From an uncultured Clostridia bacterium (GTDB lineage: Bacteria; Bacillota; Clostridia; TANB77; CAG-508), in NCBI GenBank assembly GCA_934162365.1, contig CAKPIK010000001.1, positions 341,501-405,500 on the forward strand: DNA of 64,000 nt, given 5' to 3'. Of the stretch, positions 9,790-32,327 are shown piece by piece. The number at the start of each line of letters is the position of its first letter. Within the stretch, counting starts at the first letter, position 1. Under the pieces are notes generated by a model that was not told where the DNA came from, searched no databases, and saw only the letters and a program-made list of their open reading frames with translations. The translations under genes and the position numbers were made by a program.

Positions 9790-12450
9790 ATGTGGAGTAC
9801 TTTAGATGTTAAAAATGTACAAAGAAAACTTAAGACAAGTATAAATGTTGGATTAACAGAGGAAGAAGCAGAAAATAGAAAGAAACAATATGGAGAAAAT
9901 AAACTAGATGAAGGAAAAAAAGAGAGTTTATTTATAAAATTTATAAAACAATTTAATGATTTTATGATTATTACTCTACTTATTGCTTCTGGAATTTCTG
10001 CAAGCATATCATATATTCAAAAAACAAATGATTACATAGATTCAATAATAATAGTGGCAATTGTTGTACTAAATGCAACTGTTGGAGTTATACAGGAAAG
10101 TAAAGCAGAAAAATCAATAGAAGCACTAAATAAACTTACTGCTCCTAAAGCCAAGGTTAAAAGAGATAATATATTAAAAACAATAGATAGCAAAGAATTG
10201 GTACCAGGAGATATTATTGTAATAGAAACAGGAGACTATATACCAGCAGATTGTAGATTAATTAATTCATATAATTTAAAAGTAGAAGAGTCTGCATTAA
10301 CAGGAGAAAATCTGCCAGTATTAAAAAAGGCTGATTGTATTGTAAGTGAAAAGGCAGCAGTAGGAGATATGCAAAACCTAGTTTTTGCAACAACAATGGT
10401 AGTAAATGGACATGCAGAAGCAATTGTAACAGAAACTGGTATGAATACAAAAGTTGGAAAAATTGCTGGAATGATAATAAAAGATGAGGCCCCAGAAACA
10501 CCACTTCAAAAAAGATTAGGTGATGTTGGTAAAAAACTTGGAATTGTAGCTTTATTAATTTGTGTATTGATATTTTTTATAGGGTTAATAAAGAAAATAC
10601 CAGTAATGGAAATATTTATGACTTCTGTTGGATTGGCCGTTGCAGCAATACCAGAAGGCTTACCAGCTGTTGTAACAATAATGCTATCTATAGGCGTTAC
10701 AAAAATGGCTAAAAAGAATAGCATAATTAGAAAATTACCAGCAGTTGAAACCTTGGGAAGTAGTAATGTTATATGCTCAGATAAAACAGGAACCTTAACT
10801 CAAAATAAAATGAAGGTAATGGAAATAATAGGTTTAGATCAAAATCCATTTAGAAAAAAAGAGATATTAGAAATGGCGTGTATGTGCACAGATTGTAATA
10901 TAAATTATTCTACTAAAGAGGTAGATGGAGAAGCAACAGAAAAATCAATTGTAGAAGCAGCTTTGGATGTTGGAATAGATAAAAATGAATTATATAGTAA
11001 AATGCAAAGAGTAAATGATATTCCATTTGATTCAGATAGAAAAATGATGTCAACAATACATCAAGTTGGGAATAAATATAGAGTTATAACTAAAGGTGCG
11101 CCAGAAATATTAATAAAAAAATGTAATAGATATTTAGAAAATACTAGAGAAGAACATTTAAATAGTGAAAATATAAGAAAAATAAATAAAATTAATGAAC
11201 AAATGGCAGATAAAGCATTAAGAGTTATAGCTGTTGGGTATAAGGATTTAGATGAATTACCATTAGATGTAAATACAAGTTTAGAAGAAAACTTAACATT
11301 TTGCGGTTTAATAGGAATGATAGATCCGCCGAGAGAAGGTGTAAAAGAGGCTATAAATATTTGCAAACATGCTGGCATAAAAACTGTTATGATAACAGGT
11401 GATCATATATTAACAGCAAAAGCAATTGCAAAAGATCTAGGAATATTAAGAGTTGGGGATTTAGCAATTACAGGTCAACAGCTTGATGAAATACCAAATG
11501 AAGACTTTGAAAAAAATATAATGAAATATTCTGTATTTGCAAGAGTATCACCAGAACATAAAGTGAAAATAGTAAAGGCATTTAGAAAAAATGGAAATGT
11601 TGTTGCAATGACTGGTGACGGAGTAAATGATGCACCTGCTCTAAAAAATGCCGATATAGGGATTGCAATGGGAAAAACAGGCACAGATGTTGCAAAAAAT
11701 GCATCAGATATGATTTTGTCAGATGATAACTTTGTAACAATAGTTGAAGCTGTAAAAGAGGGAAGACATATTTATGATAATATAAAGAAAGCTGTGCATT
11801 TTTTGCTTGCAACTAATATAGGAGAAATTGTTGCTATATTTGTTGGGTTACTTATAGGTTTAGATACACCACTTTTAGCAATACAACTATTATGGATAAA
11901 TTTAGTAACAGACTCTTTGCCAGCAATAGCTTTAGGACTAGAACCAATAGATAAAAATATAATGAATAAAAAACCTAAAAAATCAAATGAAAGTATTTTT
12001 GCAGGTGGACTATGGGGAAGCATTTTTGTAGAGGGAATGATGATAGGAATATTAACATTGTTTGCTTTTGCAATAGGAAATAATAAATATGGAATTGAAG
12101 TTGGAAGAACTATGGCATTCTTTACGCTAAGTGCATTAGAATTAGTTCATAGTATTAATGTTAGAAGTGAAGAATCAATTTTTAGAATAGGAATTTTTAG
12201 TAATATATATTTAGTAGGAGCATTTATTATAGGAATAATGTTACAGTTTTTAGTAATAGCAATACCAAGCCTAGCAAAAATTTTTGAATCAGTGCCATTA
12301 AATTTAACTCAATGGATATATGTAGCAGTAATTTCTATTTTACCATTGATATTAATTGAACTTCAAAAAAGAATAAATGAGTTTAAATTTGGAAAAGTAG
12401 TATATTCTCCGAAAGAAATAATAATAAAAAAGCAAAAGAGTGCAAATTAA
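9790..12450 (+). CDS. calcium-translocating P2-type ATPase
   Basis: CSDKTGTLTQNKM, MITGD and TGDGVNDAPALK motifs. 886 aa with N-terminal cation-ATPase domain LTEEEAENRKKQYGENKL. Confidence 0.85.
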   Translation: MWSTLDVKNVQRKLKTSINVGLTEEEAENRKKQYGENKLDEGKKESLFIKFIKQFNDFMIITLLIASGISASISYIQKTNDYIDSIIIVAIVVLNATVGVIQESKAEKSIEALNKLTAPKAKVKRDNILKTIDSKELVPGDIIVIETGDYIPADCRLINSYNLKVEESALTGENLPVLKKADCIVSEKAAVGDMQNLVFATTMVVNGHAEAIVTETGMNTKVGKIAGMIIKDEAPETPLQKRLGDVGKKLGIVALLICVLIFFIGLIKKIPVMEIFMTSVGLAVAAIPEGLPAVVTIMLSIGVTKMAKKNSIIRKLPAVETLGSSNVICSDKTGTLTQNKMKVMEIIGLDQNPFRKKEILEMACMCTDCNINYSTKEVDGEATEKSIVEAALDVGIDKNELYSKMQRVNDIPFDSDRKMMSTIHQVGNKYRVITKGAPEILIKKCNRYLENTREEHLNSENIRKINKINEQMADKALRVIAVGYKDLDELPLDVNTSLEENLTFCGLIGMIDPPREGVKEAINICKHAGIKTVMITGDHILTAKAIAKDLGILRVGDLAITGQQLDEIPNEDFEKNIMKYSVFARVSPEHKVKIVKAFRKNGNVVAMTGDGVNDAPALKNADIGIAMGKTGTDVAKNASDMILSDDNFVTIVEAVKEGRHIYDNIKKAVHFLLATNIGEIVAIFVGLLIGLDTPLLAIQLLWINLVTDSLPAIALGLEPIDKNIMNKKPKKSNESIFAGGLWGSIFVEGMMIGILTLFAFAIGNNKYGIEVGRTMAFFTLSALELVHSINVRSEESIFRIGIFSNIYLVGAFIIGIMLQFLVIAIPSLAKIFESVPLNLTQWIYVAVISILPLILIELQKRINEFKFGKVVYSPKEIIIKKQKSAN

Positions 12451-13598: not shown

Positions 13599-13600
13599 CT

Positions 13601-13629
13601 CATAATACAACCTTCATACGAATACAATT
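13601..13629 (+). promoter_or_regulatory. sigma-E-type promoter of spoIIID
   Basis: TCATAAT-N14-AATACAAT, compared with my recollection of the B. subtilis sigma-E consensus (kmATAww-N14-CATACAmT). It lies ~32 nt upstream of the GGAGG RBS and ATG. Confidence 0.45.
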
Positions 13630-13661
13630 AAACAAATGTAATCGTATGGAGGTTTTGCTTT

Positions 13662-13788
13662 ATGACCAAAGTTTCAATAGAAGAACGTGCAATAGAGCTT
13701 GCACAGTATATAATAGATTCAAAAGATACAGTAAGAGGAGCTGCCAAAAAATATGGAATAAGTAAAAGCACAGTACACACGGATGTAA
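13662..13788 (+). CDS. spoIIID: spoIIID 5' segment (HTH half); the reading frame then runs into the inserted element
   Basis: MTKVSIEERAIELAQYIIDSKDTVRGAAKKYGISKSTVHTDV aligns with B. subtilis SpoIIID ...KKTVRVIAKEFGVSKSTVHKDL. Similarity is lost after 13788. Track ORF 13662..13901 is the read-through product. Confidence 0.85.
13770..13788 (+). repeat. left junction (attL-like) repeat
   Basis: ACAGTACACACGGATGTAA, compared with ACAGTACATAAAGATGTAA at 25807-25825 (16/19 match). The identical core GATGTAA is at 13782-13788. Confidence 0.75.
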
Positions 13789-13916
13789 CACTAAAGAACG
13801 GTTTAAAAAATGGACAAGTTATTCCTGAAAGTATTGAAATAAAGAAGGTTTTCCTAGCAGAGAAAAATCCAGTTGTTAGATTAGGATTATTAATTAAATA
13901 AAATATAAAATTTGGT

Positions 13917-13942
13917 GTCTACTCTTTGAGTGGACATTTTTT
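13917..13942 (+). terminator. terminator just inside the element's left end
   Basis: GTCTACTC-ttt-GAGTGGAC stem (one G-U pair) followed by a T6 run. Confidence 0.5.
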
Positions 13943-14015
13943 GTGAAAAAGCATATATTGAAAATTTTGTCAAAATATGATATAAATAGTGTAAATAAAA
14001 GATTGGAGAATAAAA

Positions 14016-15074
14016 ATGGAAAATAATAAGTTACAAAATGAAATCGAAGAAAAAAGAAATAGTCTATCAACTGATAGATTGGATATGTCATATGGTGAAA
14101 TTATAAGCATGTATCAAAATGATGATTTAATTATAAATCCAGAATTTCAGAGATTATTTAGATGGAATAATTATCAAAAAACCAGATTTGTTGAATCTAT
14201 ATTATTAGGTATCCCTACTCCACCAATATTTGTTGCAGAAGATAAAGAAGGAAAATGGGAATTAGTTGACGGATTGCAAAGATTATCAACAATAATATCT
14301 TTTTTTGGTTTGCTAAAAGGACCATCAGAAGATAAAAATAAATGGACTTTAGAAAAAGCACCTTTAATTTCAACACTAGAGGGAATTAATATTGATACTT
14401 TACCATTGTTATTTCAAAGAAATATTAAAAGAGCTTATTGTAGAGTGGAAATAATAAAATGGGATAGTAATATTGATATGAGATATGAATTATTCAATAG
14501 ATTAAATACTGGAGGTTCAAGTCTAACGGAACAAGAAATAAGAAACTGCATTTTTAGAGGAAACGGAAATGAGTTTAATAATTTTATAAGAGAACTCGCA
14601 GATATGCCAAAATTTATTGAATTAGCTGATATTAGTAGTAAAAAGAAAGAAGAATTATATTTAGATGAATTGGTATTAAGATTTTTATCTTTAAAAGAAG
14701 AATATAATTCGATGAATGATAATTTATCTGAACATATGACAAGGTTTATGGAGGAAGAAACAAAATACCATAATTTATCTTATGAATTTGAGAAACAAAA
14801 CTTTATTAATATCGTTAGTCTTTTATATAAAATAGGACCGGATGTGTTTAAAGCAACGAATAAACAATTTTCAAGTGCAATATATGATGGAGTAATGGTT
14901 GCAACAAATATGTATTATGAAAAATACAAAGATGACGTAACATCTTTAAAAAATAAAATTAAATCATTAAAAGAGAATAAAGAATACAAATCTAATATGG
15001 GCTCAAATTCGGGAGGAAAAGGAAGGGTTCAAAATAGAATTTCTATAGCAATTGATATTTTGGGCAAGGAGTAA
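14016..15074 (+). CDS. DUF262 (ParB/GmrSD N-terminal-like) domain protein
   Basis: INPEFQRLFRWNNYQKTRFVESILLGIPTPPIFV...ELVDGLQRLSTI matches the DUF262 FQR...DGQQRLTT signature. No DUF1524/HNH half is present. Confidence 0.75.
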   Translation: MENNKLQNEIEEKRNSLSTDRLDMSYGEIISMYQNDDLIINPEFQRLFRWNNYQKTRFVESILLGIPTPPIFVAEDKEGKWELVDGLQRLSTIISFFGLLKGPSEDKNKWTLEKAPLISTLEGINIDTLPLLFQRNIKRAYCRVEIIKWDSNIDMRYELFNRLNTGGSSLTEQEIRNCIFRGNGNEFNNFIRELADMPKFIELADISSKKKEELYLDELVLRFLSLKEEYNSMNDNLSEHMTRFMEEETKYHNLSYEFEKQNFINIVSLLYKIGPDVFKATNKQFSSAIYDGVMVATNMYYEKYKDDVTSLKNKIKSLKENKEYKSNMGSNSGGKGRVQNRISIAIDILGKE

Positions 15075-15081
15075 TTTTATT

Positions 15082-15741
15082 ATGAATATAGAAGAAAGTT
15101 TAGAGAATGAATTACAGTGGCGTATAGAAATATTTTCATATCTAAAGACCATTCCAAAGAGGAGAGCTTTTAGTGATAAAGAACAAGAAATATATTATAA
15201 TAGTATTATTCCTATTATCTATAGTCATTTAGAAGGATTTATTAATAAGGCAATTAATATATATAGTACATATATTAATAAACTTGGAGTTAACTATTTA
15301 GATTATCATCCAAATATATTATTACATATTATTGAAAATAAATATAATAATGTCTTTGAAGATGCAATAAAAAATACAAATTCGAAAAATAAAATTATAA
15401 ATAAATTTTGTAACGATATAAAAAATGAAGATATGTCTATTCCAATAAAAGCAAGTAGGAATATGAATATGAATTGTAAGAGAATAAATATATTATTAAA
15501 TAGTTTTAATATAAAACCAATTAGAGAGGATAAATACGAAAGTAAATTAGATGCACTTCTAGGAAAACGAAATTGTATTGCTCATGGTGAAGCTAGTATA
15601 CAAGTTTCAGATACTGATATTACGGATTATATAAAATTAGTCAGTGATGTTATAGAAGATATAATAATTAATATAACTGAAGCATATAATAATAAAGATT
15701 ATTATAATGATGATATTAGAAACAATCTAAATGAAATATAA
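15082..15741 (+). CDS. HEPN-domain protein (MAE_28990/MAE_18760-like)
   Basis: C-terminal Rx4H motif LLGKRNCIAHGE plus IYSHLEGF. AAGGAG RBS. The start lies 7 nt after the DUF262 stop. Confidence 0.65.
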   Translation: MNIEESLENELQWRIEIFSYLKTIPKRRAFSDKEQEIYYNSIIPIIYSHLEGFINKAINIYSTYINKLGVNYLDYHPNILLHIIENKYNNVFEDAIKNTNSKNKIINKFCNDIKNEDMSIPIKASRNMNMNCKRINILLNSFNIKPIREDKYESKLDALLGKRNCIAHGEASIQVSDTDITDYIKLVSDVIEDIIINITEAYNNKDYYNDDIRNNLNEI

Positions 15742-15783
15742 AACGCTTTGAATTTAAGAAATTAAGTTCAAGGCGTTTCTTTA
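15741..15783 (+). terminator. rho-independent terminator
   Basis: AAACGCTTTGAA...TTCAAGGCGTTT stem followed by T-rich sequence. Confidence 0.6.
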
Positions 15784-15872
15784 TGCCTAAAAGATATTTT
15801 ATTAAATTTGATTTTAAAAGCCACAAAATCGAACGTGGTGCGAATAAAAGCTAAACGAAAGGAGAATATGAA

Positions 15873-16406
15873 ATGCAAAAATTAAAAGGATTATGGATTC
15901 CAGCAGAAATATTATTAAATGAAAATTTATCAGATAAAGAAAAGATAATACTATCAATAATTTTATATTTAAGTGAAGAAACTAAAAGTTGTTTTGCAAG
16001 TAATAAATATATTGCAAATATTGTAAATGTAACACCTGAAAGAGTATCTAAAATCATAAGTTCATTAAAAGATAAAGGATATATAAGTGTTAAATTAAAA
16101 TATAAAACAGATAGCAAAGAAATAGAAGAAAGACAAATTACACCTATAGTCGAAAACGTCAATAGGTATAGTCAAAAACTTCAAGAGGGTATAGACAATA
16201 ATAACTATTTAGATAGTGAAAAACGACCATACCCTATAGGTGAAAATAACAAAGATATAATAAATAATATAAAAAATAAAAATAATTATAATAAGGAATG
16301 CCAGACAAGTAAAAAGAAATATGTACCATATAGAAGCGACAGAAATTATGATAACTTAAATTGGGATAGCTTATATGCAAATTATAAAGAGATTACTGCT
16401 ACTTAA
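15873..16406 (+). CDS. winged-helix/HTH protein of plasmid or phage replication-initiator type
   Basis: WIPAEILLNENLSDKEKIILSIILYLSEE...ASNKYIANIVNVTPERVSKIISSLKDKGYI is HTH_36-like. The exact function is not established. Confidence 0.4.
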   Translation: MQKLKGLWIPAEILLNENLSDKEKIILSIILYLSEETKSCFASNKYIANIVNVTPERVSKIISSLKDKGYISVKLKYKTDSKEIEERQITPIVENVNRYSQKLQEGIDNNNYLDSEKRPYPIGENNKDIINNIKNKNNYNKECQTSKKKYVPYRSDRNYDNLNWDSLYANYKEITAT

Positions 16407-16459
16407 ATATTTAGCTAATCTCTTTTAATTTGCCTAAAAAACTATTTATATTTTTTTAG

Positions 16460-16575
16460 CACTCAAAAATAAAAATTAGCTTTTTATTTTTGAGTGGAAA
16501 GGGTGCAGGGACTCCTGCCACACTAACACTTTTTGAAGCAGTAGGCTAAAAAAGTGTTGTAGTGTGTTACAACAC
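16460..16575 (+). promoter_or_regulatory. oriT region (MobV-type) with overlapping inverted repeats
   Basis: Perfect 16-bp hairpin at 16460-16496. IR CACTAACACTTTTT/AAAAAGTGTTgtAGTG at 16521-16564. IR GTGTTGTA-GTGTGT-TACAACAC at 16554-16575. The loop carries TAGTGTGTTA, which resembles the pMV158 nick sequence TAGTGTG/TTA. Confidence 0.6.
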
Positions 16576-16646
16576 ATTAGAGAAAGCAGAAGATTTTAGC
16601 TTATCTCTGTGTTTACTCATTAGATTAAAAGAAGGAGGTATATGAG

Positions 16647-17834
16647 ATGAGTTATGCTATAATAAGAAATACAAAATACAAAAGAGAAAATTTAAAAGGA
16701 ATATATAGACACAATGAAAGAAGAAATAAGAATTATTCAAATGCAAATATAGATAAAGAAAAATCATATTTGAACTATTCAATAAAATCTCCACAATATA
16801 GTTATGAAAAAGAATTTGATTTAATGAGAGAAAAATACAAATTAAAAGGACAAATAAAAGTAGTTAGTAATATTGCTTGTGAATATATAATTACTTCTGA
16901 TAAGGAATTTTTTGAAACAATAGGGGAAGAAGAAACAAAAAGATATTTTGAAACTGCATATCAATTTGTAACTCAATACAAAGATTTAGGCGAACAATAT
17001 ATAATGTCTGCAAAAGTGCATATGGATGAAGAAACACCACATATGCACTTAATTTTTTTACCTGTAGTTCATACCAAAGATAAAAAAGGTAATGACATTG
17101 ACAAATTAGCTTGTAGCGAATTTTGGAAAGCTAAAGATAGTTATAGACAACTTCAAAATGCTTTTTACAATTATATGGTATCTAATAATTTTGAACTGGA
17201 AAGAGGTCTGCCAAAAGAAGAAACAGGAAGAGAACATATAGATTTGAAAGAATATAAAGAAATAACTAATTTTGATAAAACAAAAGAAAAATTACAAAAT
17301 ATAAAATTAGAATTGCCAGATGTTCCAAATTTAGAAGATATAAATGTAAATAGACTTTCAAAAAAGAGAGATGAAAAGATACTTGAAGAAATAATTAAAC
17401 CAAAAGATAATTTGATAAATGACTTGTATCAAGACAACCTAATTTTACAACAAGAATTATCAAGACAAGCAAGAATGGTAGAAAAAGCAGAAAAATATCA
17501 AAGAGAACGAGATAAAATAATGGAAGATAATGAAAATCTACACAATGAAGTGGAACAAATTAGGGCTGAATACAAGCAAAAAGAAAGTGATATTGAATGG
17601 AAATACAAGAGTAAAATTAAAGGTTTAGAAAAAGAAAATAATAAACTTCATAGAATTGTAGAGAAGTTCTACGAAACTATAGATAAATTTATTCATTGGA
17701 TTTGTAAGAAATTTGATATGGGTGCAGAAGATAATTTGATAAGAGATTTTCAAAAAGAAACAAATACCTTACTAAATGCTGAAAAACAAATTGAAAAAGA
17801 AGATAGAGAAAAAGAATTTGAAATGGAATTATAA
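16647..17834 (+). CDS. MobV-family relaxase (Mob/Pre plasmid recombination enzyme)
   Basis: MSYAIIRNTKYKRENLKGIYRHNERR N-terminus and HMDEETPHMHLIFLPV histidine triad, followed by a coiled-coil C-terminus. Confidence 0.85.
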   Translation: MSYAIIRNTKYKRENLKGIYRHNERRNKNYSNANIDKEKSYLNYSIKSPQYSYEKEFDLMREKYKLKGQIKVVSNIACEYIITSDKEFFETIGEEETKRYFETAYQFVTQYKDLGEQYIMSAKVHMDEETPHMHLIFLPVVHTKDKKGNDIDKLACSEFWKAKDSYRQLQNAFYNYMVSNNFELERGLPKEETGREHIDLKEYKEITNFDKTKEKLQNIKLELPDVPNLEDINVNRLSKKRDEKILEEIIKPKDNLINDLYQDNLILQQELSRQARMVEKAEKYQRERDKIMEDNENLHNEVEQIRAEYKQKESDIEWKYKSKIKGLEKENNKLHRIVEKFYETIDKFIHWICKKFDMGAEDNLIRDFQKETNTLLNAEKQIEKEDREKEFEMEL

Positions 17835-17907
17835 TCACTTTATTTTTTTGTATTATTATGATATATTAAGGAGGAAAAATAAAATAAATGATAAAAAAAG
17901 GAAAAAT

Positions 17908-19668
17908 ATGAAAAAAAGTTTTTTAAATAAGACACTAAAAGGTACAAAATTTTATATAGTTTTAATATTAATATTGAGTGCAATATATTCAAGATTATTG
18001 GTATATATACCTATGTTTATACAATATGCACTTGATGGTGTAATAATGGAAAATGAAAGTGTAATTCCAAATCTAATAAGAAACTTATTTTATTCAAATG
18101 ATAAGATATCAAAGATAATAGTTCTTGTTTTAGTATTGATAATGCTAAATATACTAGTTTTTATTGTAAATTATTTGAAGAGTAAGATTAATACAAAATT
18201 TAATTTGATAATAAATAGAAATGTTAAAGAATCAGTTTTAGAGCATATTCCAAAAATAAATTATATGCAATTTAGCAATATAGATAAGTCAAATGTAATT
18301 CAAAGAGTTAATAATGATGCTACTATATATTCTGAATTTTTTAATTCTCAAATAAATTTATTTTTTGATACAATTTTTATTATTATATTTGCAGTAGCAC
18401 AAACTTTACAATTAAATAGTACAGTTGGATTATTTATAGCTATAATTTGTGGATTGATAGTAGCATTATCTATATGGTATTTTAGAGCATCAAAACCATT
18501 AGTAGAAGATATTGTAGAAAGTAATAGAGAAGTAATAAACAAAACTACTATAGAAATAGAAGAATCTAAAATGTTAAAAATATTTAACAGAAGAGATAAA
18601 GAAATGGAAGACTTCTCAAAAATGAATAGTGAATATAAGAAAAAAGAAATAAAACTCGCAAAAATGAAAGTACTATATGGAATAGGTACACATACATTAA
18701 GAAATTTTAAAGAGCCATTTATATTACTATGGGGTGGGATATTAGTTGTACAAGGAGAAATGACACTTGCTACTATATCAATTTTACTAACATATTCAAC
18801 AAAAATATTAGAATATGTATATAAATCAGTAGACAAGCTAAAAGCAATAAATGAATTTATTGTAGCATATAAAAAGTTATCAAGTTTAATGAATTTAGAT
18901 GAAGATATAGAAAAAAATCCATATGTGGAATTAGATGGAGATATAGTTTTTGAAAATGTAAGTATAAAACTAAATAATAACACTATATTAGAAAATTTGA
19001 ATTTTACAATTAATAAAAATGAAAATGTAGCAATTATAGGAGATAATGGTTCAGGAAAAACAGTTATTTCAAAAACTTTAATTGGCTTTTATGATTATAC
19101 AGGAAATATATATATTGGAAAGCACAATATAAAAGATGTAAGTAAAAAGAGCTTAAGAGATTATATAGGAGTAGTTCTTCAATATACATATTTATTTACA
19201 GACACAATAAAAGACAATATAAATATTACTAATCGTCTTATAAAAAATGAAGAGATAATAGAGGCTTGTAAATTAGCAGATATATATGAAGATATAAAAG
19301 GATTTGATAAAAACATAGATTATATAATAGGAAAAGGTGGAAATAACATTTCTGGTGGGCAAAAACAAAGAATTGCAATAGCTAGAACTTTGATAAAACA
19401 AAACGAATTTATAGTTTTTGATGATTCATTATCAAAACTTGATACAAGAACAAAACTAAATATATTAAACAATATTATAAAAATGAAAATAGGAGCAATA
19501 ATAATTTCACATGATTCAGAAGTAGTAAAAAGATGTGATAAAGTATTATTCATAAATGATAAAACCATTGAAGTTGGAAAACATGAAGATTTGATGAACT
19601 CAAATAAATTATATAAAGAAATTATAGAGATTAGTAAAAATAAAATAATAGAAGATGAGGAATTTTAA
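17908..19668 (+). CDS. ABC exporter, fused permease/ATPase (subunit 1 of a pair)
   Basis: Six-TM N-terminal half, Walker A GDNGSGKT, signature ISGGQKQR and Walker B FIVFDD. ATG 17908 is in frame within track ORF 17776..19668. Confidence 0.85.
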   Translation: MKKSFLNKTLKGTKFYIVLILILSAIYSRLLVYIPMFIQYALDGVIMENESVIPNLIRNLFYSNDKISKIIVLVLVLIMLNILVFIVNYLKSKINTKFNLIINRNVKESVLEHIPKINYMQFSNIDKSNVIQRVNNDATIYSEFFNSQINLFFDTIFIIIFAVAQTLQLNSTVGLFIAIICGLIVALSIWYFRASKPLVEDIVESNREVINKTTIEIEESKMLKIFNRRDKEMEDFSKMNSEYKKKEIKLAKMKVLYGIGTHTLRNFKEPFILLWGGILVVQGEMTLATISILLTYSTKILEYVYKSVDKLKAINEFIVAYKKLSSLMNLDEDIEKNPYVELDGDIVFENVSIKLNNNTILENLNFTINKNENVAIIGDNGSGKTVISKTLIGFYDYTGNIYIGKHNIKDVSKKSLRDYIGVVLQYTYLFTDTIKDNINITNRLIKNEEIIEACKLADIYEDIKGFDKNIDYIIGKGGNNISGGQKQRIAIARTLIKQNEFIVFDDSLSKLDTRTKLNILNNIIKMKIGAIIISHDSEVVKRCDKVLFINDKTIEVGKHEDLMNSNKLYKEIIEISKNKIIEDEEF

Positions 19669-19671
19669 GTA

Positions 19672-21361
19672 ATGTTAAAAGAAATTATAAATAATTACAA
19701 AAAACAATCAATTAAAGTAGCACTTCGGTTGGTTTATAACAAGTATAATGGTAGTAGTTTTTATAGCTTTTACAATTGTTATGGTAGAATATGCAATACC
19801 AAGTAAGGATATTAAATTAATAATAGTATTAGGTATAAGCTATTTTGGAGTTAATATTTTGCGTTCTATTGTTACATTTTTTGAAGACTTTAATGATGAG
19901 GGATTTCAAAAAGAATTAGAAGCGGATTACAGAGAAAAAATTTATTTAAAGTTACAAAAAACAACGCAAAGTGAAATAGACAAAATAAGAGTTGGTGAAA
20001 TATTAGAAAATATAATAAATGATACAAAAGAATTTGCAAGATGGTATAATGCAGGAATTTGTAGGTCTTATTTTGGAGGAATAGTAAGATTAGTTGGAAC
20101 ATTGCTTGTGTTAATGTATTTAAATATACCAATAGTTACAATAACATTCTTGATATATATATTTGGATTTTTGGTAACACATATATTTAATAAAAAATCA
20201 ATTGAATACACAAAGTTAAAAAGAGAAGCAAATGCTAAAATATTAAACTGGTCAAATGAACAAGTACAAGGATATTCTACAATAAAATCATTAGAGATTG
20301 AACACGAAAGAATTTTGCAAGTAAAAGGGTTAATTTCACAATATGAAAAGTCTGTAAATAAATTAGAAAAAAATATTAGAATATATACTTGTTTATATGA
20401 TTTTATAGTTTCATTCGTTGGAGTATTAAATATATTAATTGGCTCAGTAGGAGTTGAACAAGGAATCATAACATATGGAGCTATGATAATTCTTGCAAGA
20501 TATTTATCTTCACCAGAGACATATGCAAAATGGGTAATAGAAGGATTTCAAATAAGAAATATTGGAAAGATATCATATGAAAGAATAAATAATATCTTGC
20601 AAAAAGAAGAGGAAGAAATAAATATAGGAATACAATTAGAAAAAGTAAATAGCATTCAATTTGAAAGTATTAGTTTTTCATATGATAATGAGAAAAATGT
20701 TTTAAACGATATATCTTTTAATGTAAATAAAAATGAAAGTGTTGCCTTAATAGGAAGAACAGGTAGTGGAAAGACAAGTTTAGTAAATTTAATTTGTAGA
20801 TTTTATGACTTAAAAGAGGGAACTATTAAAATAAACGGAAAAGACTATAAAGAATATAGTATAAAAAGTTTAAGAGATAAAATTGGATATATTATGCAAA
20901 AAGTCGTAATATTTGATGGAACAATTTTAGAAAATATAAATTATGCTAATAAAAATATTTCAAAAGATGAAATAGTTGAAATATGCAAGAAGTTAAATTT
21001 ACATGATAAAATAATGTCGTTAAAAGATGGATACGAAACAAAGATTTCTAGTGATACAGATATTTTTTCAGCAGGAGAAAAACAACTTTTAAATTTTACA
21101 AGAGTAATGGTTGAAAATCCAGAAATTATAATACTAGATGAAGCTACAGCATCACTTTCATATAGATCTGAAATGATGGTAAGAAAAGCAATAGAAGAGA
21201 TAACAAAAGGAAAAATAAGTTTCATTATAGCACATAGACTCTCAACTATTAAAAAATGTGACAAAATATTACTTATGAAAGATGGTAAAATAATAGAAGA
21301 AGGAAACCACAATGAACTGATGAGTAAACAGGGAGAATACTATCAATTAATTAATGTTTAA
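19672..21361 (+). pseudogene. ABC exporter permease/ATPase (subunit 2) with an apparent +1 frameshift near the 5' end
   Basis: ATG 19672 lies 3 nt after the upstream stop and opens MLKEIINNYKKQSIKVALRLV.... The main ORF (19748..21361: GRTGSGKT, SAGEKQ, IILDEAT) is in the next frame and is open from 19721. Deleting one T of TTT 19733-19735 joins them. Confidence 0.6.
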
Positions 21362-21372
21362 GTGAAAGAATA

Positions 21373-21400
21373 AAAGCTACCGTGTCAAATGGTAGCTTTT
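21373..21400. terminator. bidirectional terminator
   Basis: AAAGCTACC-gtgtcaaat-GGTAGCTTT between convergent genes. Confidence 0.65.
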
Positions 21401-21421
21401 ATGGACTATATATTATATATT

Positions 21422-22707
21422 TTAAGATTTCCAATAAATATCACTTAAATTCTTTAACTCTATTTTAAAGTCTTCTAATTGGTTATCTGAAAATTTATCT
21501 CTTAATTTTCTAGCTTTTTTTGACCATTCTTTAAATTTATTTTCAGTAAATTTCTTTTGATGATTATAATGTAATCCGTGCATTCTTTTATATTCTCTGT
21601 TATATTCTATTAAAATTGGACTATTTTGTACTTTTTCTTTTTGTTTATTTAAAGCACCTATCTCTTTACAAGTTTTTCCTGTATTTTCAAATAAACTATT
21701 ACAATATTTTTGGTCATTTCTTCCTTTTTGATTTGGATTATTACTACTAGTTATAGGTATAAATAGTTTACCACAATTTTCGCATTTAGTTATAACAAAA
21801 TTATTTTGAATTACTTTAAATAACTCAAATTTGATTTGTTCTTCACAATTATTTATCTCATAAACTTCTTCAACATATATATTTTTTGTATGCATTACAT
21901 CAATCAATTCTTCTACTGATAATTGTTTTTCTTTAAAAGTTATATCAGCATTGCAAATATATTTAGTTACAAATTTTGTGTCTAAAAACAATGCGTGGGC
22001 AGGATTGGTGTTCAAATAATGTAAATCAAACACATCTTTAGCTTCATATAAATATAATCTTTCTTCATTACTCAAATTTCGAACAAAAGAATTATTAGAA
22101 TATTCACTTATTAATTCTAATCTTTCTTTCAAGTCGCTTTTTTGATTTATAAGGTCTTTTATTAAGTAATCCTTTATTGTTTCAAAAAACTTTATATATT
22201 CATTATGTTTTTTTTTTCGAGATTTTATCTATTTCAGTAGTCCACTCATACATTATTGTTTGAAATACATAATGGTTTTCTTCTATTTCTTCAAATATTT
22301 CATTTGGAGTATATTCAGTATTATCAATATATACTCCAATATTATTCTTGAATAAGAGGTCACTTCTAAATACTCCTGAATTATATGTTTTTATGATTAT
22401 ATCTATTAAAGTTTGAGTGTAAAAATGCGTATATGGAGAAAAATTCAAACATTCTTGTACTTTATGAAACATTTCAAATAAAAAATTAACCTTTTTATCC
22501 ATACTATTACATTCTTTATTGCTACAAACAATGTTAATTAATTCTGTATATAGAATTTTTAGTTTATCAAATTCATCATATTCCATAATTGCAAAATCAT
22601 ATAATTTATCACCAATATTGTATTCAAAATCCAAAGTAGAACCAAAAAATTCCCCGTCCATTTTTTAAAATAATTTTATTGTTATTAAGTGTGAAATTAC
22701 TTGTCAT
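21422..22707 (-). pseudogene. hypothetical Cys-rich protein (~427 aa if corrected) broken into three frames by two homopolymer +1 shifts
   Basis: GGAGG RBS plus ATG at 22707. Frame changes occur at the A6 run (plus-strand T6, 22661-22666) and the A10 run (plus-strand T10, 22208-22217). Removing one A at each joins MTSNFTLNNNKIILK + track ORF 22203..22661 + track ORF 21422..22132. CENCGK...KYCNS...KTCKE cysteine motifs. Confidence 0.55.
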
Positions 22708-23060
22708 AACTGTGTTTCCTCCATTTTTAAATAGAATATAGCTATTTTAATTTTTAGTTTACCTATAGACTTTGTAAATTCTATTTACAACACTATTTTA
22801 GCATTTTATAATGTTTTTAGCAAGATAGAAAATAGCAACTCTAAATAAATATTTTCTATCAACTGCACATTGAAAATTGAATAGCAAACTGCAAGACATA
22901 TAATGATACTTCCGTCTGGCTAACGTGATGTAAAGGGGCGGTTCACTAAAGGTGAAATGAGGGCAAATCTCATATGTGTATATACCACTTGTAGTTTTAA
23001 AATAAAAGTAATATTTTTAAAACTTTAATAATAGTATTGAAATGGAAGAAGGTGAGAATT

Positions 23061-23243
23061 TTGAAAAAGAGTTTGAATATTACATTTATTAATCCTAATA
23101 CTGAAGAACAAATTGTACAAGCTATGGCTGGAGTTCTTGCTTATAATTTGGCTGAGAATGATGAAAATATAAAATTTGACTATAACAATTCAAATACTTA
23201 TCAAAATTCTCACAAAGAAATAGAAGATGAAATTGAATTATAA
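23061..23243 (+). CDS. small hypothetical protein (60 aa)
   Basis: AAGGTGAG RBS and TTG 23061 give MKKSLNITFINPNTEEQIVQAMAGVLAYNL.... It lies inside track ORF 23037..23243. Confidence 0.4.
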   Translation: MKKSLNITFINPNTEEQIVQAMAGVLAYNLAENDENIKFDYNNSNTYQNSHKEIEDEIEL

Positions 23244-23278
23244 TGACAAAAAATATAGAAAAATTTTTACAAAAAGTC

Positions 23279-23307
23279 TTGATATTTTAATAAAAAGTTT
23301 GTATAAT
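23279..23307 (+). promoter_or_regulatory. sigma-A promoter of the type III TA locus
   Basis: TTGATA, 17-nt spacer, TATAAT, with TG immediately upstream of the -10 box. Confidence 0.55.
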
Positions 23308-23346
23308 GAATATAATAGTAGTAGATATTTAATATCTGCTATAATT

Positions 23347-23454
23347 AAAAATGTGAATCGCAACGTCACTTGCGAGATATAAATTTGTGAATGAAAGAAT
23401 GTTAATCGCACCCCTACTTGCGGAATATAAATGAGTAGGTGAAAAAATGTTAAT
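23347..23454 (+). ncRNA. type III antitoxin RNA repeats (two full ~47-nt units plus a partial third)
   Basis: Unit 1 is AAAAATGTGAATCGCAACGTCACTTGCGAGATATAAATTTGTGAATG. Unit 2 is AAAGAATGTTAATCGCACCCCTACTTGCGGAATATAAATGAGTAGGTG. Then AAAAAATGTTAAT... follows. Internal stems covary: TCGCAA/TTGCGA versus CGCA/TGCG, and TCAC/GTGA versus CCTACT/AGTAGG. Confidence 0.7.
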
Positions 23455-23465
23455 TATAGGAAAAT

Positions 23466-23498
23466 GGGGGTCTAGAAATTATTTAGATCTCCTATTTT
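23466..23498 (+). terminator. weak attenuating terminator between antitoxin repeats and toxin gene
   Basis: GGGGGTCTAGAAATTATTTAGATCTCC imperfect hairpin followed by TATTTT. This position is typical of type III TA loci. Confidence 0.4.
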
Positions 23499-23522
23499 AA
23501 TAAAAGGAGAATTGCAATAAAA

Positions 23523-23993
23523 ATGATAATAGAAGATGGAAAATTTTATTTTATAAAAGATGAATTTTTTGATGTATTTAAAGATTATGGATTAATGCTA
23601 AACAAAGAAAATGGAAAAAAGAGACCATGTTATTTTTGTTTTAGAGATAAATATAATAAAGAAATTATTTGGTTTGTTCCAATTTCAACTAAATATGATA
23701 AATACCAGAAAATATATGAATATAAAAAACAAAGACAACATAGAGTATACAATTTTGTTTTTGGTGAAGTAGTTGGAAAGAAAGCTGTATTTTTAATTCA
23801 AAATATATTTCCAACAACTGAAGAATATATATTAGAGAAATATGTTGCAGAAAACAAAGATGTTGAAATAGCACTAAATGTAAGAAACAAAATTATAGCT
23901 TACTCAAGACAAGTAATAATGAAAGCAGAGCAAGGTATTAATATTCCATTTTATAATATTATAGAAATGGAAAAGATATTATTAAATAAATAA
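23523..23993 (+). CDS. type III toxin-antitoxin system toxin (ToxN/AbiQ/CptN-like endoribonuclease)
   Basis: KFYFIKDEFFDVFKDYGLMLNKENGKKRPCYFCF...WFVPISTKYDKY resembles the ToxN/AbiQ-type N-terminus. It is preceded by tandem RNA repeats and a terminator. Confidence 0.7.
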   Translation: MIIEDGKFYFIKDEFFDVFKDYGLMLNKENGKKRPCYFCFRDKYNKEIIWFVPISTKYDKYQKIYEYKKQRQHRVYNFVFGEVVGKKAVFLIQNIFPTTEEYILEKYVAENKDVEIALNVRNKIIAYSRQVIMKAEQGINIPFYNIIEMEKILLNK

Positions 23994-23996
23994 TTA

Positions 23997-24052
23997 TTAA
24001 AACTCAAATGTACTCGCCACCCTGTTGGCGACAAATAAATGCGTAGATGAAC
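23997..24052 (+). repeat. orphan antitoxin-like repeat downstream of the toxin gene
   Basis: AAACTCAAATGTACTCGCCACCCTGTTGGCGACAAATAAATGCGTAGATG keeps the AATGT..TCGC(stem)GCGA.A.ATAAAT..GT...TG layout, with compensating stem CGCCA/TGGCG. Confidence 0.55.
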
Positions 24053-24067
24053 AAATTATAAAAAGCT

Positions 24068-24097
24068 ATTCCTAAATGCAGGAGTAGTTTTTTTGTG
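24068..24097 (+). terminator. rho-independent terminator
   Basis: CTATTCCT-aaatgc-AGGAGTAG stem followed by a T7 run. Confidence 0.6.
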
Positions 24098-24185
24098 CTT
24101 TTATATTGAAAAAGTGAAACTGATATGCTAAAATGTAACAGAACGAAAACAACGAAACAGAGAAAATAAAGAAAGTAGTGATGTT

Positions 24186-25817
24186 ATGAAAATTGCAGCA
24201 TATTGTAGGGTATCAACTGAAAAAGAAGCACAAATAGACTCATTAGAAAAGCAAATAGAATTTTTTAATGAATTTACAAAAAAGAACGGTTATGAATTGT
24301 ACAAGCTATATGCAGATGAAGGAATATCAGGAAAACAAATAAAACACAGAAAACAATTCCAACAAATGATGATAGATGCCAAAGCAAAAAAATTTGATAA
24401 AGTAGTAGTAAAAGATGTAAGCCGTTTTGCAAGAAATACAGTAGACTTATTACAAAGTGTAAGAGAGTTAAAATCTTATGGTGTACAAGTTGATTTCTTA
24501 AACAATGGTGAAGTAATGGAAGGTGGCTCTGAATTTATATTAACAATTTTAGGAGCAATGGCACAGCAAGAAAGTGCAAATATGTCTAAAAGAGTTAAAT
24601 TCGGAAAAGACATCACAGCTAAAAAAGGAAGAGTGCCTAACCTGGTATTTGGATATGACAAAATTCCAGATGAAAGATATACTTTAAAAATAAATGAAGA
24701 AGAAGCAAAAATCGTAAAAGAAATATTTGAAAGTTACGTATATAAAGGAATAGGTACAACAAAAATAGCATGGAACTTAAATGACAGAGGAATACGTACT
24801 AAAAAGACAAAATCAAAATGGGTACAAACATCTATTGTAAGAATGCTTAAAAATCCAATATATACAGGAAGAGTAACAAATAAAAAATCAGAAGTAACAG
24901 ACTTTATAACAGGGACAAGAAAAGAATTGCCAGAAGAAGAAAGGATAATAGTGGAAAAACCAGAAATGAGAATAATATCAGACGAACTATTTAACAGAGC
25001 ACAGGAACTTTTAGAGCAAAGATCAAACGAATTTAAATTAAATAACAAAAGAGAAAAAACAGAATATGTATTTAGCACACTTATATATTGCAAACATTGT
25101 GGTTATTCATTTAGAAGAATAAAGAGAAAATATACAGCTGATGGACCAGAATATATAAGATGGGTATGTAGTGGAAGAAATTCAATGGGAGTAAACCATT
25201 GTCCAAATACAACTGTTATTGATGAAGAAGAACTTTTAAATGCAATAAAAATCTATTTAAAAAGTATAATAAAAAATAAAAAAGATTTTATGAAAGCTGT
25301 TGAAAAAGAATTTGAAAAGATTACAAAATTAAGAGAAAACAATGAAAGAAGCGAAGAAAGTCTTTTAAAAGAAATTGAAAAAGTAACAGTTAAAAAACAA
25401 AAATATATGGAAATGTTTCAAAATGAAATAATCAATATACAAGAATTAAAACAATACACAAATCCACTAAATGAAGATATTACAAGACTTGAAAGAGAAT
25501 TAAAACTAATTACATCAGAAATAAAAGAAAAAGATGTACTAGAAAAAGAACTTAATAAAACAATAAAAACAGTAGATGACATATTAAATAATCAAACAAT
25601 AACAAATGCAATGTTAAAAACAATAATAGATGTAATTGAAGTTGATTCAGATTCAAATGTAGAGGTAAGACTAAAATTACTAAATGAAATAGGAACAAAT
25701 GAGCCAGTAATAACGAAATTTGAAGACATTTACCAAAATGGAGAAGACGCAGAAAACAAAGATGCAAATAATAATGAAGAAAACTCTACCGCTCTGAAAA
25801 GTAACAACAGTACATAA
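24186..25817 (+). CDS. large serine recombinase
   Basis: MKIAAYCRVSTEKEAQIDSLEKQ catalytic N-terminus, then a recombinase domain, zinc ribbon CKHCGYSF...WVCSGR...CPN and coiled coil. The stop codon lies 1 nt before the right-hand GATGTAA core. Confidence 0.9.
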   Translation: MKIAAYCRVSTEKEAQIDSLEKQIEFFNEFTKKNGYELYKLYADEGISGKQIKHRKQFQQMMIDAKAKKFDKVVVKDVSRFARNTVDLLQSVRELKSYGVQVDFLNNGEVMEGGSEFILTILGAMAQQESANMSKRVKFGKDITAKKGRVPNLVFGYDKIPDERYTLKINEEEAKIVKEIFESYVYKGIGTTKIAWNLNDRGIRTKKTKSKWVQTSIVRMLKNPIYTGRVTNKKSEVTDFITGTRKELPEEERIIVEKPEMRIISDELFNRAQELLEQRSNEFKLNNKREKTEYVFSTLIYCKHCGYSFRRIKRKYTADGPEYIRWVCSGRNSMGVNHCPNTTVIDEEELLNAIKIYLKSIIKNKKDFMKAVEKEFEKITKLRENNERSEESLLKEIEKVTVKKQKYMEMFQNEIINIQELKQYTNPLNEDITRLERELKLITSEIKEKDVLEKELNKTIKTVDDILNNQTITNAMLKTIIDVIEVDSDSNVEVRLKLLNEIGTNEPVITKFEDIYQNGEDAENKDANNNEENSTALKSNNST

Positions 25818-25825
25818 AGATGTAA
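25807..25825 (+). repeat. right junction (attR-like) repeat
   Basis: ACAGTACATAAAGATGTAA, with the core GATGTAA at 25819-25825. Confidence 0.75.
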
Positions 25826-25968
25826 GTGAAAGATTACTAAAGATAAATCCTGCATTAGCACATGATGTTAGAATAGTACTAGATGAAAATAAAGCAGAAA
25901 GACATATAAGGGGAGGTATGGCTACAAAACTAAAATATGAACATGATAAAGCAATCAAGAGTGGATAA
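25819..25968 (+). CDS. spoIIID: spoIIID 3' segment
   Basis: No start codon of its own. It translates to DVSERLLKINPALAHDVRIVLDENKAERHIRGGMATKLKYEHDKAIKSG-stop. This matches B. subtilis SpoIIID DLTERLPEINPDLANEVKEILDYHKSIRGHLGGESTKLKYKK. Confidence 0.85.
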   Translation, partial: DVSERLLKINPALAHDVRIVLDENKAERHIRGGMATKLKYEHDKAIKSG

Positions 25969-25987
25969 TACTCTTGATTATTTTTTT
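25953..25987 (+). terminator. spoIIID terminator
   Basis: AATCAAGAGT-ggataat-ACTCTTGATT perfect stem followed by a T7 run. Confidence 0.75.
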
Positions 25988-31500: not shown

Positions 31501-32327
31501 ATGGAAAAAATAAAAAAACGGAGATATTGTTGCGAGAAAATCTCATGGATTTGATATATTATTCACAGTAGAAAAAATTATTAGAAGTACTAATGGTATG
31601 CAGATAGCTATTTTAAAAGGAATAACAGTTAGAATTGTAGCAGATGCATATTTAAATGATCTTGTTGTAATTGGTGAAGAAGAAGCTGATAATTGTTTAA
31701 GAAGTTTGGATACTCAAATTGAAAAAAGAGTAAATACTTTTCTAAAGCAATATAATCAAATAAAACATAAAGATAGAAAAATAGAGAGTGGGAAGGCAGG
31801 GCTTATTCTACATTTGGACGGAGATAAACTTTATTCTGAAAAAACAAGTAGATATTATAAAAAAATGGGACTTGATGCCATAGTTTTAAATATTCCAGAA
31901 GTAAAACAACCTATGCTTGTAAAAGGGTATTTAGAAAAATACAAACCTGATGTTTTAGTATTAACTCGGACATGATGGAATGATTAAAAGTGGTACTAAA
32001 TATGGAGATTTATCTAATTATAGAAATTCAAAATATTTTGTAAAAGCAGTTTTAGAAGCAAGAAAAATTAATCCGTCAAGTAATAAACTCGCCATATTTG
32101 CAGGAGCATGTCAAAGTTTTTTTGAAGCAATAATGGCAGCAGGAGCTAATTTTGCTTCATCTCCTGGAAGGATATTAATAGATTTTATGGATCCACTTAT
32201 TGTTGCGGAAAAAATAGCCATTACAGAAAGAAGTAAGTTTGTAACAATAAATGATATTGTGAAAGATTTACGAGATGGCAGAAAAAGCATAGATGGTAGC
32301 GGAGTGATGGGAAAAAAAGCCTTGTAA
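31501..32327 (+). pseudogene. yabG: sporulation-specific protease YabG, interrupted by two apparent +1 frameshifts
   Basis: GAGGTGG RBS plus ATG 31501 (MEKIK...). The YabG frame KNGDIVARKSHGFDILF... opens at 31514, after the A7 run (31512-31518). The frame shifts again at ...VLVLT/cGHDGMIKSG (extra base ~31967). Track ORFs 31598..31975 and 31980..32327 are the fragments. Confidence 0.7.

Follow-up and report, generated by a model that had tools for sequence, protein, structure and literature searches.

Is the spoIIID gene at this locus a broken gene, or one that is put back together during sporulation? The window (the whole 64-kb stretch of DNA analysed here, from an uncultured Clostridia bacterium, with a G+C content of about 25%) holds the two halves of spoIIID on either side of an inserted 12-kb element that carries a large serine recombinase gene. 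SpoIIID is the switch from the early (sigma-E) to the late (sigma-K) mother-cell programme, and in B. subtilis it also aids excision of the skin element. A sequence-only reading of the window had left two alternatives, developmental excision of the element or a plain knock-out of the gene. We find that these are still the right alternatives and that the anatomy of the locus favours excision, without proving it.

A spoIIID gene in two halves

The left half is an open reading frame (ORF) that opens at 13662 with the start of the SpoIIID helix-turn-helix (HTH) domain (MTKVSIEERAIELAQYIIDSKDTVRGAAKKYGISKSTVH...). Positions 13662-13787 translate as MTKVSIEERAIELAQYIIDSKDTVRGAAKKYGISKSTVHTDV, and the frame continues to a stop codon at 13899-13901. 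The right half is start-less: 25819-25968 translates as DVSERLLKINPALAHDVRIVLDENKAERHIRGGMATKLKYEHDKAIKSG and ends in a stop codon. Both translations agree with the sequence-only reading, as does the 543-aa large serine recombinase ORF that ends one base before the right half. The left half aligns with residues 4-44 of B. subtilis SpoIIID (PDB 2L0K), and its ORF alone scores 56.1 bits against TIGR02844, for which the equivalog cut-off is 111.5. The joined 89-aa protein passes this cut-off with 120.5 bits and matches PF12116 (1.5e-37). Accordingly, the two segments are halves of one SpoIIID, as had been proposed. No second SpoIIID-like sequence was found within the 64-kb window.

A sigma-E-type promoter and a terminator had also been placed around the gene, and our scans recover both (Table 1). 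Upstream of spoIIID, TTCTAAT or TCATAAT followed by N14 and AATACAAT is conserved in 20+ host species, and from orthologues in B. subtilis and C. difficile we infer that this promoter depends on sigma-E (PMC3789822). The 5′ leader at 13630-13661 (TAAACAAAAGTATTC...ATGGGGGTT) equals the promoter in its conservation across species, which suggests a regulatory site or structure there.

Empty sites place the crossover at GTACA

We collected same-species metagenome contigs through the response-regulator gene just downstream of spoIIID. An uninterrupted 89-codon spoIIID stands between identical neighbours in L001, L002 and L004-L008, and the element is present in L003, L204 and about 5 others. The empty site that the sequence-only reading had proposed to look for thus exists within the species, at the same location. 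It reads ...AAAAGCACAGTACATAAAGATGTAAGTGAAAG, and around the junction ...AGCACAGTACATAAAGATGTAAGTG encodes STVHKDVSE. The left junction of the window is AGCACAGTACA/CACGGATGTAACACT and the right junction AACAACAGTACA/TAAAGATGTAAGTG, where the slash marks the joint; because of the empty-site sequence, the DNA to the right of ACAGTACA at the left junction (CACGGATGTAACACT) can be assigned to the element.

Across 25 complete elements, the identity between left and right junctions shrinks to GTACA, and attB, attP, attL and attR fit the arrangements B-O-P′ and P-O-B′ exactly. This core lies in codons 38-39 of spoIIID, at the HTH recognition helix. The best dyad of the reconstructed attP is centred between the C and the A of the core, with 14 of 24 positions symmetric, and the outer att arms form an inverted repeat (TACCGTT and AACGGTA).

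The crossover had first been placed elsewhere, within the heptamer GATGTAA. This heptamer does occur at both junctions (13782-13788 and 25819-25825), inside a 16/19 direct repeat (13770-13788 and 25807-25825), but the empty-site sequence rules out a crossover there. The core lies 5-9 bp to the left of the heptamer, and a joint within the heptamer would give a K40T protein, whereas a joint at GTACA gives the wild-type gene exactly. GATGTAA is part of the P′ arm, where the element sequence imitates that of the host B′ arm. The claim that recombination restores an in-frame 89-codon spoIIID holds for GTACA, where precise excision restores the reading frame, at the sequence level only, as the natural empty allele of the species.

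The same junctions bear on a simpler objection, that an assembly or binning error produced a chimeric contig joining the element to a broken gene. The data are metagenome-derived, and some family members lie on short contigs in implausible taxa (a Melainabacteria bin), but the junctions recur in 7 independent same-species contigs from different studies. They recur again among 181 attR junctions over all fetched loci, nearly all at the same spoIIID position, in many species and including two closed HiFi chromosomes (L065 and L083); both junctions and the empty site also fit one reciprocal recombination exactly. Given this independent replication we reject an artefact, whose probability we regard as negligible.

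An integrative mobilizable element

With its own recombinase and relaxase, the element is an integrative mobilizable element. The label of a skin-like element, used in the sequence-only reading, is right for the split gene with a large serine recombinase at the right junction; it is wrong for the rest, which is not prophage-like and carries a Mob_Pre relaxase instead. Phage structural or lysis genes were not found in the element, its only PHROG matches being the integrase and a replication-initiator-like protein, and no conjugation or secretion-system family matched among the element ORFs scanned.

The recombinase contains resolvase, recombinase and zinc-ribbon domains, matches the PHROG integrase family (2.4e-117) and has the Ser10 motif YCRVST. 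Its residues 11-493 align distantly with SPbeta YokA/SprA (PDB 9dxh, E = 5e-14), and it scores far under the CcrB, CcrC and XisF equivalog cut-offs. No relative above 45% identity was found in phage and plasmid collections. The best match there, MT838016.1, is a chromosomal fragment of a different organism, higher in G+C by eye, with no spoIIID ORF after the recombinase. We reject a prophage origin since the element has no phage genes and its recombinase shares no more than 45% identity with any in the phage and plasmid collections.

A family of elements with one target

A recombinase search of one genome per species returned 156 relatives, and the loci analysed here are the best 80 of these, 86-99% identical. 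All have as hosts uncultured, low-GC Clostridia from the gut of humans, pigs, rabbits, mice, chickens or ruminants, and clustering at 90% identity puts the recombinase in a group of 1017 members. The split gene first noticed in the window is thus real but not single; it is one member of a family in 80 examined species.

The target is nearly invariant. In 77 of the 80 loci, the 3′ end of the recombinase gene marks the start of the spoIIID 3′ half (residues 36 onward), and the 5′ half lies 4.7-12 kb upstream wherever the flank reaches that far. In 78/80 loci the insertion is at the same codon of spoIIID or a spoIIID-like gene. Exceptional are L046, where the contig ends at the core, the tandem junction of L081, and the loci L056 and L085 described below. 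Pattern scanning of a metagenome collection added 110 further attR junctions. About 97% of the scorable 3′ halves are intact.

Some loci depart from this picture in ways worth recording. In L056 (5380-5640) the interrupted gene is a divergent SpoIIID-like paralogue with 49% identity, entered at the corresponding position. In L085 (11560-11800) the element adjoins unrelated G+C-rich DNA, the result of either off-target insertion or a chimeric assembly. At L081, a P arm, core and P′ arm follow the complete recombinase (11540-11720); this attP-like junction points to a tandem arrangement at spoIIID of two elements or remnants. L044 and L045 are 3-4-kb contigs binned as Melainabacteria and 'Bacilli incertae sedis', bins that most likely reflect contamination by a mobile element and not the true hosts.

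Cargo varies across the 25 complete elements: a relaxase is found in 16, CptIN in 14, DUF6076 in 13 and an HTH_36/DnaD-like gene in 6. Only the recombinase, a small ORF that we call orf60, and an in-frame tail on the spoIIID 5′ half are kept in all of them, and even elements of 4.7-4.9 kb that have no relaxase still hold these three.

The family also moves between hosts. The window recombinase gene has 95-97% nucleotide identity to those of species with diverged flanks, whose alignment is confined to the ~130-nt remnant of spoIIID (75-90% identity). Where two loci share at least 97% recombinase identity, the flanks have diverged in all 15 pairs, and recombinase and flank identities are hardly correlated (Spearman 0.13). 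Near-identical recombinases in spite of diverged flanks show horizontal spread; vertical inheritance or ancient domestication is rejected, since recombinase identity does not track the host flanks. Altogether, it is virtually certain that this is a site-specific serine-recombinase element with a GTACA core, reversible in principle, a member of a family and horizontally mobile.

The element adds a conserved tail to SpoIIID

The DNA that follows residue 42 in the left frame had been taken for unrelated sequence. It is in fact a conserved in-frame tail under selection. Every element extends the spoIIID frame by about 38-45 codons, and the tail of the window ends ...DVTLKNGLKNGQVIPESIEIKKVFLAEKNPVVRLGLLIK before the stop codon. 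Conservation is seen in 24/24 scorable elements. Third codon positions are 2.3 times more variable than the other two (entropy 0.75 vs 0.31 and 0.35), pN/pS is 0.30-0.34, all six insertions are of 21 or 24 nt and keep the frame, and the stop codon is conserved. The protein database holds at least 120 clusters of such 79-80-aa chimeras. The tail is a coding sequence under purifying selection, fused to SpoIIID residues 1-40.

Other sources of this conservation were examined and set aside. An antisense ORF is rejected, since antisense pN/pS is higher (0.43 vs 0.34) and the first start lies at the att end in 17/25 elements, which leaves the tail uncovered; the co-periodic antisense frame is open in 24/25 elements because the tail has no Tyr codons and few His or Gln codons. 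Expression from a circular form is likewise rejected, as the tail frame there has only 5-33 upstream codons, which are not conserved, and an in-frame start codon is lacking in 12/25 elements. Only fusion with spoIIID allows the tail to be translated. An unfused internal copy of it in L081 contains two in-frame stops.

Might the chimera, then, be a regulator in its own right? The tail would replace the SpoIIID C-terminal half, and the protein would act as a substitute or dominant modifier of mother-cell expression, so that carriage reprogrammes sporulation and excision is not needed. Such a role would suit the selection on a tail that is in frame, keeps its frame through indels and is translatable only as a fusion, and the chimera does retain all three HTH helices, including the recognition helix. 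The tail itself argues otherwise. Its similarity to the SpoIIID C-terminal half is insignificant (hhalign E = 0.28), by which we also reject a diverged C-terminal half, and the similarity of the chimera to the solved B. subtilis SpoIIID ends at residue 45. The RHIRGGMATKLKY basic region, invariant in hosts and needed for high-affinity DNA binding according to structural work on B. subtilis SpoIIID, is missing. AlphaFold gives the chimera three HTH helices of moderate confidence and a disordered tail (pLDDT 31-37). An altered regulator would also leave the retained recombinase and orf60 and the intact host 3′ half unexplained, and we consider it very unlikely.

Candidate promoters of the recombinase and orf60

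The near-consensus sigma-A-type promoter of the recombinase is conserved in almost all of 79 aligned loci, and the recombinase is therefore probably always present. Directly after its -10 element, TGTAACAGAACG (24134-24145) resembles the P′ att half-site ATGTAACACTnnAGAACGG and also matches the C. difficile SpoIIID box KRTAACARK at 8/9 positions; it could serve the recombinase in autoregulation, or be a point at which SpoIIID or the chimera exerts control.

The recombinase stop codon, TAA at 25815-25817, is host DNA: the host codons CAT AAA yield ...ACA TAA. As a consequence, the recombinase C-terminus varies with the host His codon and with excision. Hosts that use CAC for His39 have a recombinase at least 5 residues longer (loci L009-L088), and in the circular form the recombinase gains 8-25 residues from the P′ arm.

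orf60 encodes an acidic protein and is present in all 25 complete elements and in 65 of the 80 loci, the other 15 having less than 3.9 kb upstream of the recombinase. Its homologues form 1128 clusters, all without names. Ahead of it, a block of ~60 nt that opens with the promoter motif and reaches the ribosome-binding site is kept in 24/24 aligned elements, and the DNA preceding this block falls into at least three unrelated contexts among them. The -10 element ends 15-24 nt ahead of the start codon. The mother-cell promoter type, with ATA at -35 and xATAxxxT at -10 (PMC3789822), fits the block, which resembles the host spoIIID promoters and in which no sigma-A-type match was found. From this layout, we propose orf60 as a candidate recombination directionality factor behind a sigma-E-like promoter.

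Between DUF6076 and orf60 lies a G+C-richer structured stretch that weakly matches the Rfam pemK RNA motif RF02913, at 28.4 bits, the gathering score being 34.8. Rfam gave no match at gathering score on seven related loci.

Circles or tandems exist

Pattern scans of the metagenome collection for the attP junction, a specific one and a broader one (which gave the 110 attR), found no attP. A protein search for the attP-specific recombinase C-terminus returned three contigs, L218, L219 and L220. L218 reads from the recombinase end through the core, P′ arm, intact tail and terminator into a relaxase gene; L219 has the same layout, and L220 is a remnant. The P-O-P′ junctions of L218 and L219 are circles or tandem copies, so the elements leave the chromosome or at least form tandems. 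The overwhelming dominance of the integrated form would be seen if excision were rare and linked to transfer, and equally if it took place in dying mother cells alone.

Excision in the mother cell or plain knock-out

We consider it on balance probable that the element is excised in the sporulating mother cell and that spoIIID is rebuilt there. The recombinase would integrate the element at the single GTACA site in spoIIID. While integrated, the element would have the spoIIID promoter, ribosome-binding site and first 40 codons fused to its tail of ~38 aa, so that the mother cell would first make a SpoIIID(HTH)::tail chimera. orf60, expressed in the mother cell from its sigma-E-like promoter, would act as the directionality factor and switch on excision. 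Recombination of attL with attR would then give back a wild-type spoIIID read from its native sigma-E promoter, allowing SpoIIID and the later sigma-K programme to proceed, with the forespore chromosome keeping the element. Such a scheme is established for C. difficile skin (CD1231/CD1234), SPbeta (SprA/SprB) and gin of B. cereus (GirC/GirX). We favour this model because of the target gene, the promoter layout like that of the C. difficile skin element, the retained recombinase, orf60 and tail, and the cost of losing spoIIID.

That cost is high where it has been measured: knocking out C. difficile spoIIID lowers heat-resistant spores about 3000-fold (PMC3789822). Against it stand 156 relatives, a 1017-member recombinase cluster and 1128 orf60 clusters, an abundance that is hard to reconcile with irreversible disruption. 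It speaks against a plain knock-out, in which spoIIID would be a conserved landing site that is silent in growth, excision would be rare and would serve mobilization, and carriers would be oligosporogenous like spoIIID mutants, persisting since spores matter little or the cargo compensates. Dead insertions would not be expected to retain recombinase, orf60 and tail in relaxase-less mini-elements. Nor do they sit easily with intact 3′ halves at about 97%, or with a conserved orf60 promoter block that has no good sigma-A match and resembles the host spoIIID promoter. A plain knock-out does find support in an occupancy of roughly 4-5% in the window's species, in recent horizontal spread, in the frequent relaxase (16/25), in cargo for defence, ABC export and abortive infection by toxin-antitoxin, in the few frameshifted 3′ halves, in a fixed frameshift in yabG, and in the pattern scan itself, with 110 attR vs no attP. 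We regard it as possible, if rather doubtful.

The yabG gene lies outside the element at 31598-32327 and encodes a sporulation-signature protease. It is split into ORFs of 125 and 115 aa by one extra C in the catalytic LTGHDG motif (ACTCGGACATGATGG), near 31964-31970. The frameshift is present in 8/8 same-species contigs checked, and LTGHDG is intact in related species. Either yabG is a fixed pseudogene here or the frameshift is programmed.

Several points weigh against regulated excision in the mother cell. A fixed yabG frameshift may mean that selection for sporulation is relaxed in the window's species. The element is rare there, with intact SpoIIID indexed in 161 blocks of the collection and the chimera in about 8. 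The insertions look recent, so intact spoIIID halves prove little, and 5 of 176 scorable 3′ halves are frameshifted. The relaxase implies excision in vegetative donor cells, and the clostridial serine recombinases TnpX and TndX excise without any accessory factor. orf60 had no Pfam, NCBIfam or PDB match, matched no known directionality factor, and has a fold prediction of low confidence (pLDDT 57). Its sigma-E assignment is weak, as the -10 element opens with A, not C; the scan pattern was loosened after the sequences had been viewed, and it still gives 11 matches in the window. The sigma-A-like promoter and leader lie ahead of orf60 in 11 of 24 aligned elements. Hosts are known solely from metagenome assemblies, and spoIIID of C. 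perfringens is reportedly not controlled by sigma-E (PMC3789822).

The chimera could also take part in the excision itself, alone or with orf60, as the developmental trigger that licenses attL x attR recombination. The element would borrow the spoIIID promoter, ribosome-binding site and N-terminal domain, so that production of the tail would be limited to the mother cell and to the integrated state. The chimera might bind the recombinase, or might guide the SpoIIID HTH to the att arms and the recombinase promoter, where GTAACA motifs occur; one excision step would then destroy the chimera gene and create spoIIID. We put this forward tentatively and think it unlikely. If true, directionality control would be built by gene fusion at attL, giving a self-erasing timer ahead of SpoIIID and sigma-K.

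Gene content of the element

The remaining genes are listed in Table 1 together with the sites and signals. The first two, a DUF262/GmrSD_N gene and a HEPN gene (14016-15741), are probably a two-gene anti-phage cargo system. The CptIN toxin scores 154 bits against NF047359 (cut-off 90), and 2.3 antitoxin repeats of 48 nt precede it. An extra related repeat copy lies downstream of the toxin at 24005-24050, just ahead of a terminator, which is unusual among type III systems.

Table 1. Sites, signals and genes of the split spoIIID locus (positions in the window)
Feature	Position	Strand	Evidence or remark
Sigma-E-type spoIIID promoter, TCATAAT-N14-AATACAAT	13600..13628	+	Pattern scan
spoIIID 5′ segment	13662..13777	+	Codons 1-38 plus 2 nt; three HTH helices
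attL crossover core GTACA	13773..13777	.	Empty-site comparison; intersection of 25 elements
Inserted element, 12,037 bp	13778..25814	+	Absent from L001, L002, L004-L008
P′ att arm (CACGGATGTAACACTAAAGAACGG) and in-frame element tail	13778..13901	+	Makes 79-aa SpoIIID(1-40)::tail chimera
Intrinsic terminator after chimeric ORF	13914..13938	+	Hairpin and T-run also visible in many other elements
GmrSD_N/DUF262 cargo protein, NsnA / PD-T4-2_A-like	14016..15074	+	PF03235 1.7e-24; PADLOC NsnA 7.9e-62
HEPN (MAE_28990 / RiboL-PSP) protein, cargo	15082..15741	+	PF18737 3.8e-29; gene call in L204
HTH_36 / DnaD-like replication-initiation-type protein	15873..16406	+	PF13730 3.4e-11; PHROG replication initiation 5e-14
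Mob_Pre (MobV-type) relaxase	16647..17834	+	PF01076 1.1e-43
Two ABC exporter genes (each membrane domain + ATPase), cargo	17908..21361	+	PF00664, PF00005; L204 gene calls
DUF6076 gene and 152-aa gene	21422..22661	-	PF19553 5.6e-18
Sigma-A-like promoter TTGAAT-16-TATAAT (22877-22904) and structured leader towards orf60	22877..22977	+	
Sigma-E-like orf60 promoter, TAATATT-N14-AATAGTAT	23009..23037	+	Pattern scan; conserved block
orf60, acidic 60-63-aa protein, candidate directionality factor	23052..23243	+	pI 4.3
CptIN type III toxin-antitoxin, cargo	23343..23993	+	RNA repeats 23343-23454; toxin 23523-23993
Recombinase promoter, TTGAAA-17-TGCTAAAAT	24106..24145	+	Near-consensus sigma-A type, extended -10; then conserved TGTAACAGAACG
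Large serine recombinase, 543 aa	24186..25817	+	PF00239 1.3e-34; PF07508 6.4e-24; PF13408 4.7e-11
attR crossover core GTACA	25810..25814	.	P arm on its left, ...TACCGCTCTGAAAAGTAACAACA
spoIIID 3′ segment	25815..25968	+	Last nt of codon 39 to stop
spoIIID terminator, terminator-like hairpin	25953..25979	+	

Implications

If excision in the mother cell is correct, a DNA rearrangement would gate the mother-cell cascade one step earlier than in any experimentally studied case. The phenomenon would be common among uncultured gut Clostridia, the bacteria that dominate transmission by spores from host to host, and its carriers could be, beyond decaying prophages, small mobilizable elements with defence and efflux cargo that cross species. 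The tail raises the idea that an element, on integration, can exploit its target's promoter and N-terminus to produce its own fusion protein. As a compact, strictly site-specific integrase with well-defined attP and attB of 50-60 bp, the recombinase is of practical interest for genome engineering.

Comparison with known systems

Rearranged targets known so far are sigK, spsM, spoVFB, spoVR, gerE and yabG (PMC4191935, PMC5595907, PMC10747680). The sporulation intervening elements (skin, SPbeta, vfbin, vrin, gin and yin) interrupt the coding region of a mother-cell sporulation gene, and so does the element described here. The prophage-type gene content of their original definition, a definition already widened by gin, is absent from it.

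The sequence-only reading knew of no report of spoIIID as a target, and here it has to be amended. Galperin et al. (2022) list a split spoIIID in Ruminiclostridium cellulolyticum H10 (Ccel_3110/Ccel_3179), with fragments of 126 and 144 nt ~64.7 kb apart (bioRxiv 10.1101/2022.02.25.481979). It is called 'skin-like' in one sentence and a table row, with cotJC and without analysis, and the fragment sizes indicate a break at about the same codons. Full-text literature searches returned no description of the spoIIID element family, its site, orf60 or the chimeric tail.

The gin element in gerE of B. cereus ATCC 10987 is similar in being non-phage, in splitting a very small mother-cell regulator gene and in pairing a serine recombinase with a tiny factor. 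The pair is GirC and the 42-aa GirX, and gin has defence-type cargo and suspected horizontal spread (PMC5595907). It differs in its 28.6 kb, three recombinases, lack of a relaxase, 9-bp core and occurrence in few Bacillus strains. Sporulation-specific excision of gin was shown experimentally, whereas the spoIIID element is known from sequence alone. SPbeta in spsM (SprA/SprB) likewise combines a constitutive recombinase with an acidic directionality factor under mother-cell sigma factors, but it is a functional 134-kb phage and its target is a late spore-surface gene.

Tn4451 and Tn4453 are small clostridial elements with the TnpX serine recombinase, the TnpZ Mob/Pre relaxase and cargo. The spoIIID element shares this combination, having its own large serine recombinase, Mob_Pre relaxase and cargo, and a circular intermediate is expected for it. 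TnpX acts without accessory factors, and its insertion sites, which carry a GA dinucleotide, are many and loosely defined. The low target specificity of the Tn4451 type is not seen in the spoIIID family, which is strict for GTACA in 78/80 loci and also keeps orf60 and the tail.

In the fdxN element of Anabaena (XisF, XisH/XisI), too, a large serine recombinase carries out excision at a set time in development. The interrupted gene is one that a terminally differentiated cell needs, and accessory proteins give cell-type specificity. That element is cyanobacterial and not mobile, and the NCBIfam XisF model scores 141 bits here vs a cut-off of 375.

As for the C. difficile skin element, its large serine recombinase adjoins the 3′ fragment of a mother-cell regulator gene (sigK), and excision rebuilds the gene. 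Its recombinase, CD1231, is constitutive under sigma-A, and CD1234 is a 72-aa acidic protein without homologues, expressed under sigma-E, with 14 bp between the start of transcription and the start codon (PMC5025042). The spoIIID element appears to follow this design. Its recombinase promoter is of the sigma-A type, and the candidate factor orf60, likewise a small acidic protein and an orphan, has a putative sigma-E-type promoter and a very short leader, although it shows no sequence similarity to CD1234-type factors. Skin elements share only the recombinase among themselves, and the common core of the spoIIID family is similarly small. The target is different: spoIIID acts one step earlier in the cascade than sigK, and C. 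difficile SpoIIID helps to switch on CD1234. Finally, the C. difficile skin element is prophage-like, whereas the spoIIID element is mobilizable, moves between species and adds a selected tail to the 5′ fragment of its target.

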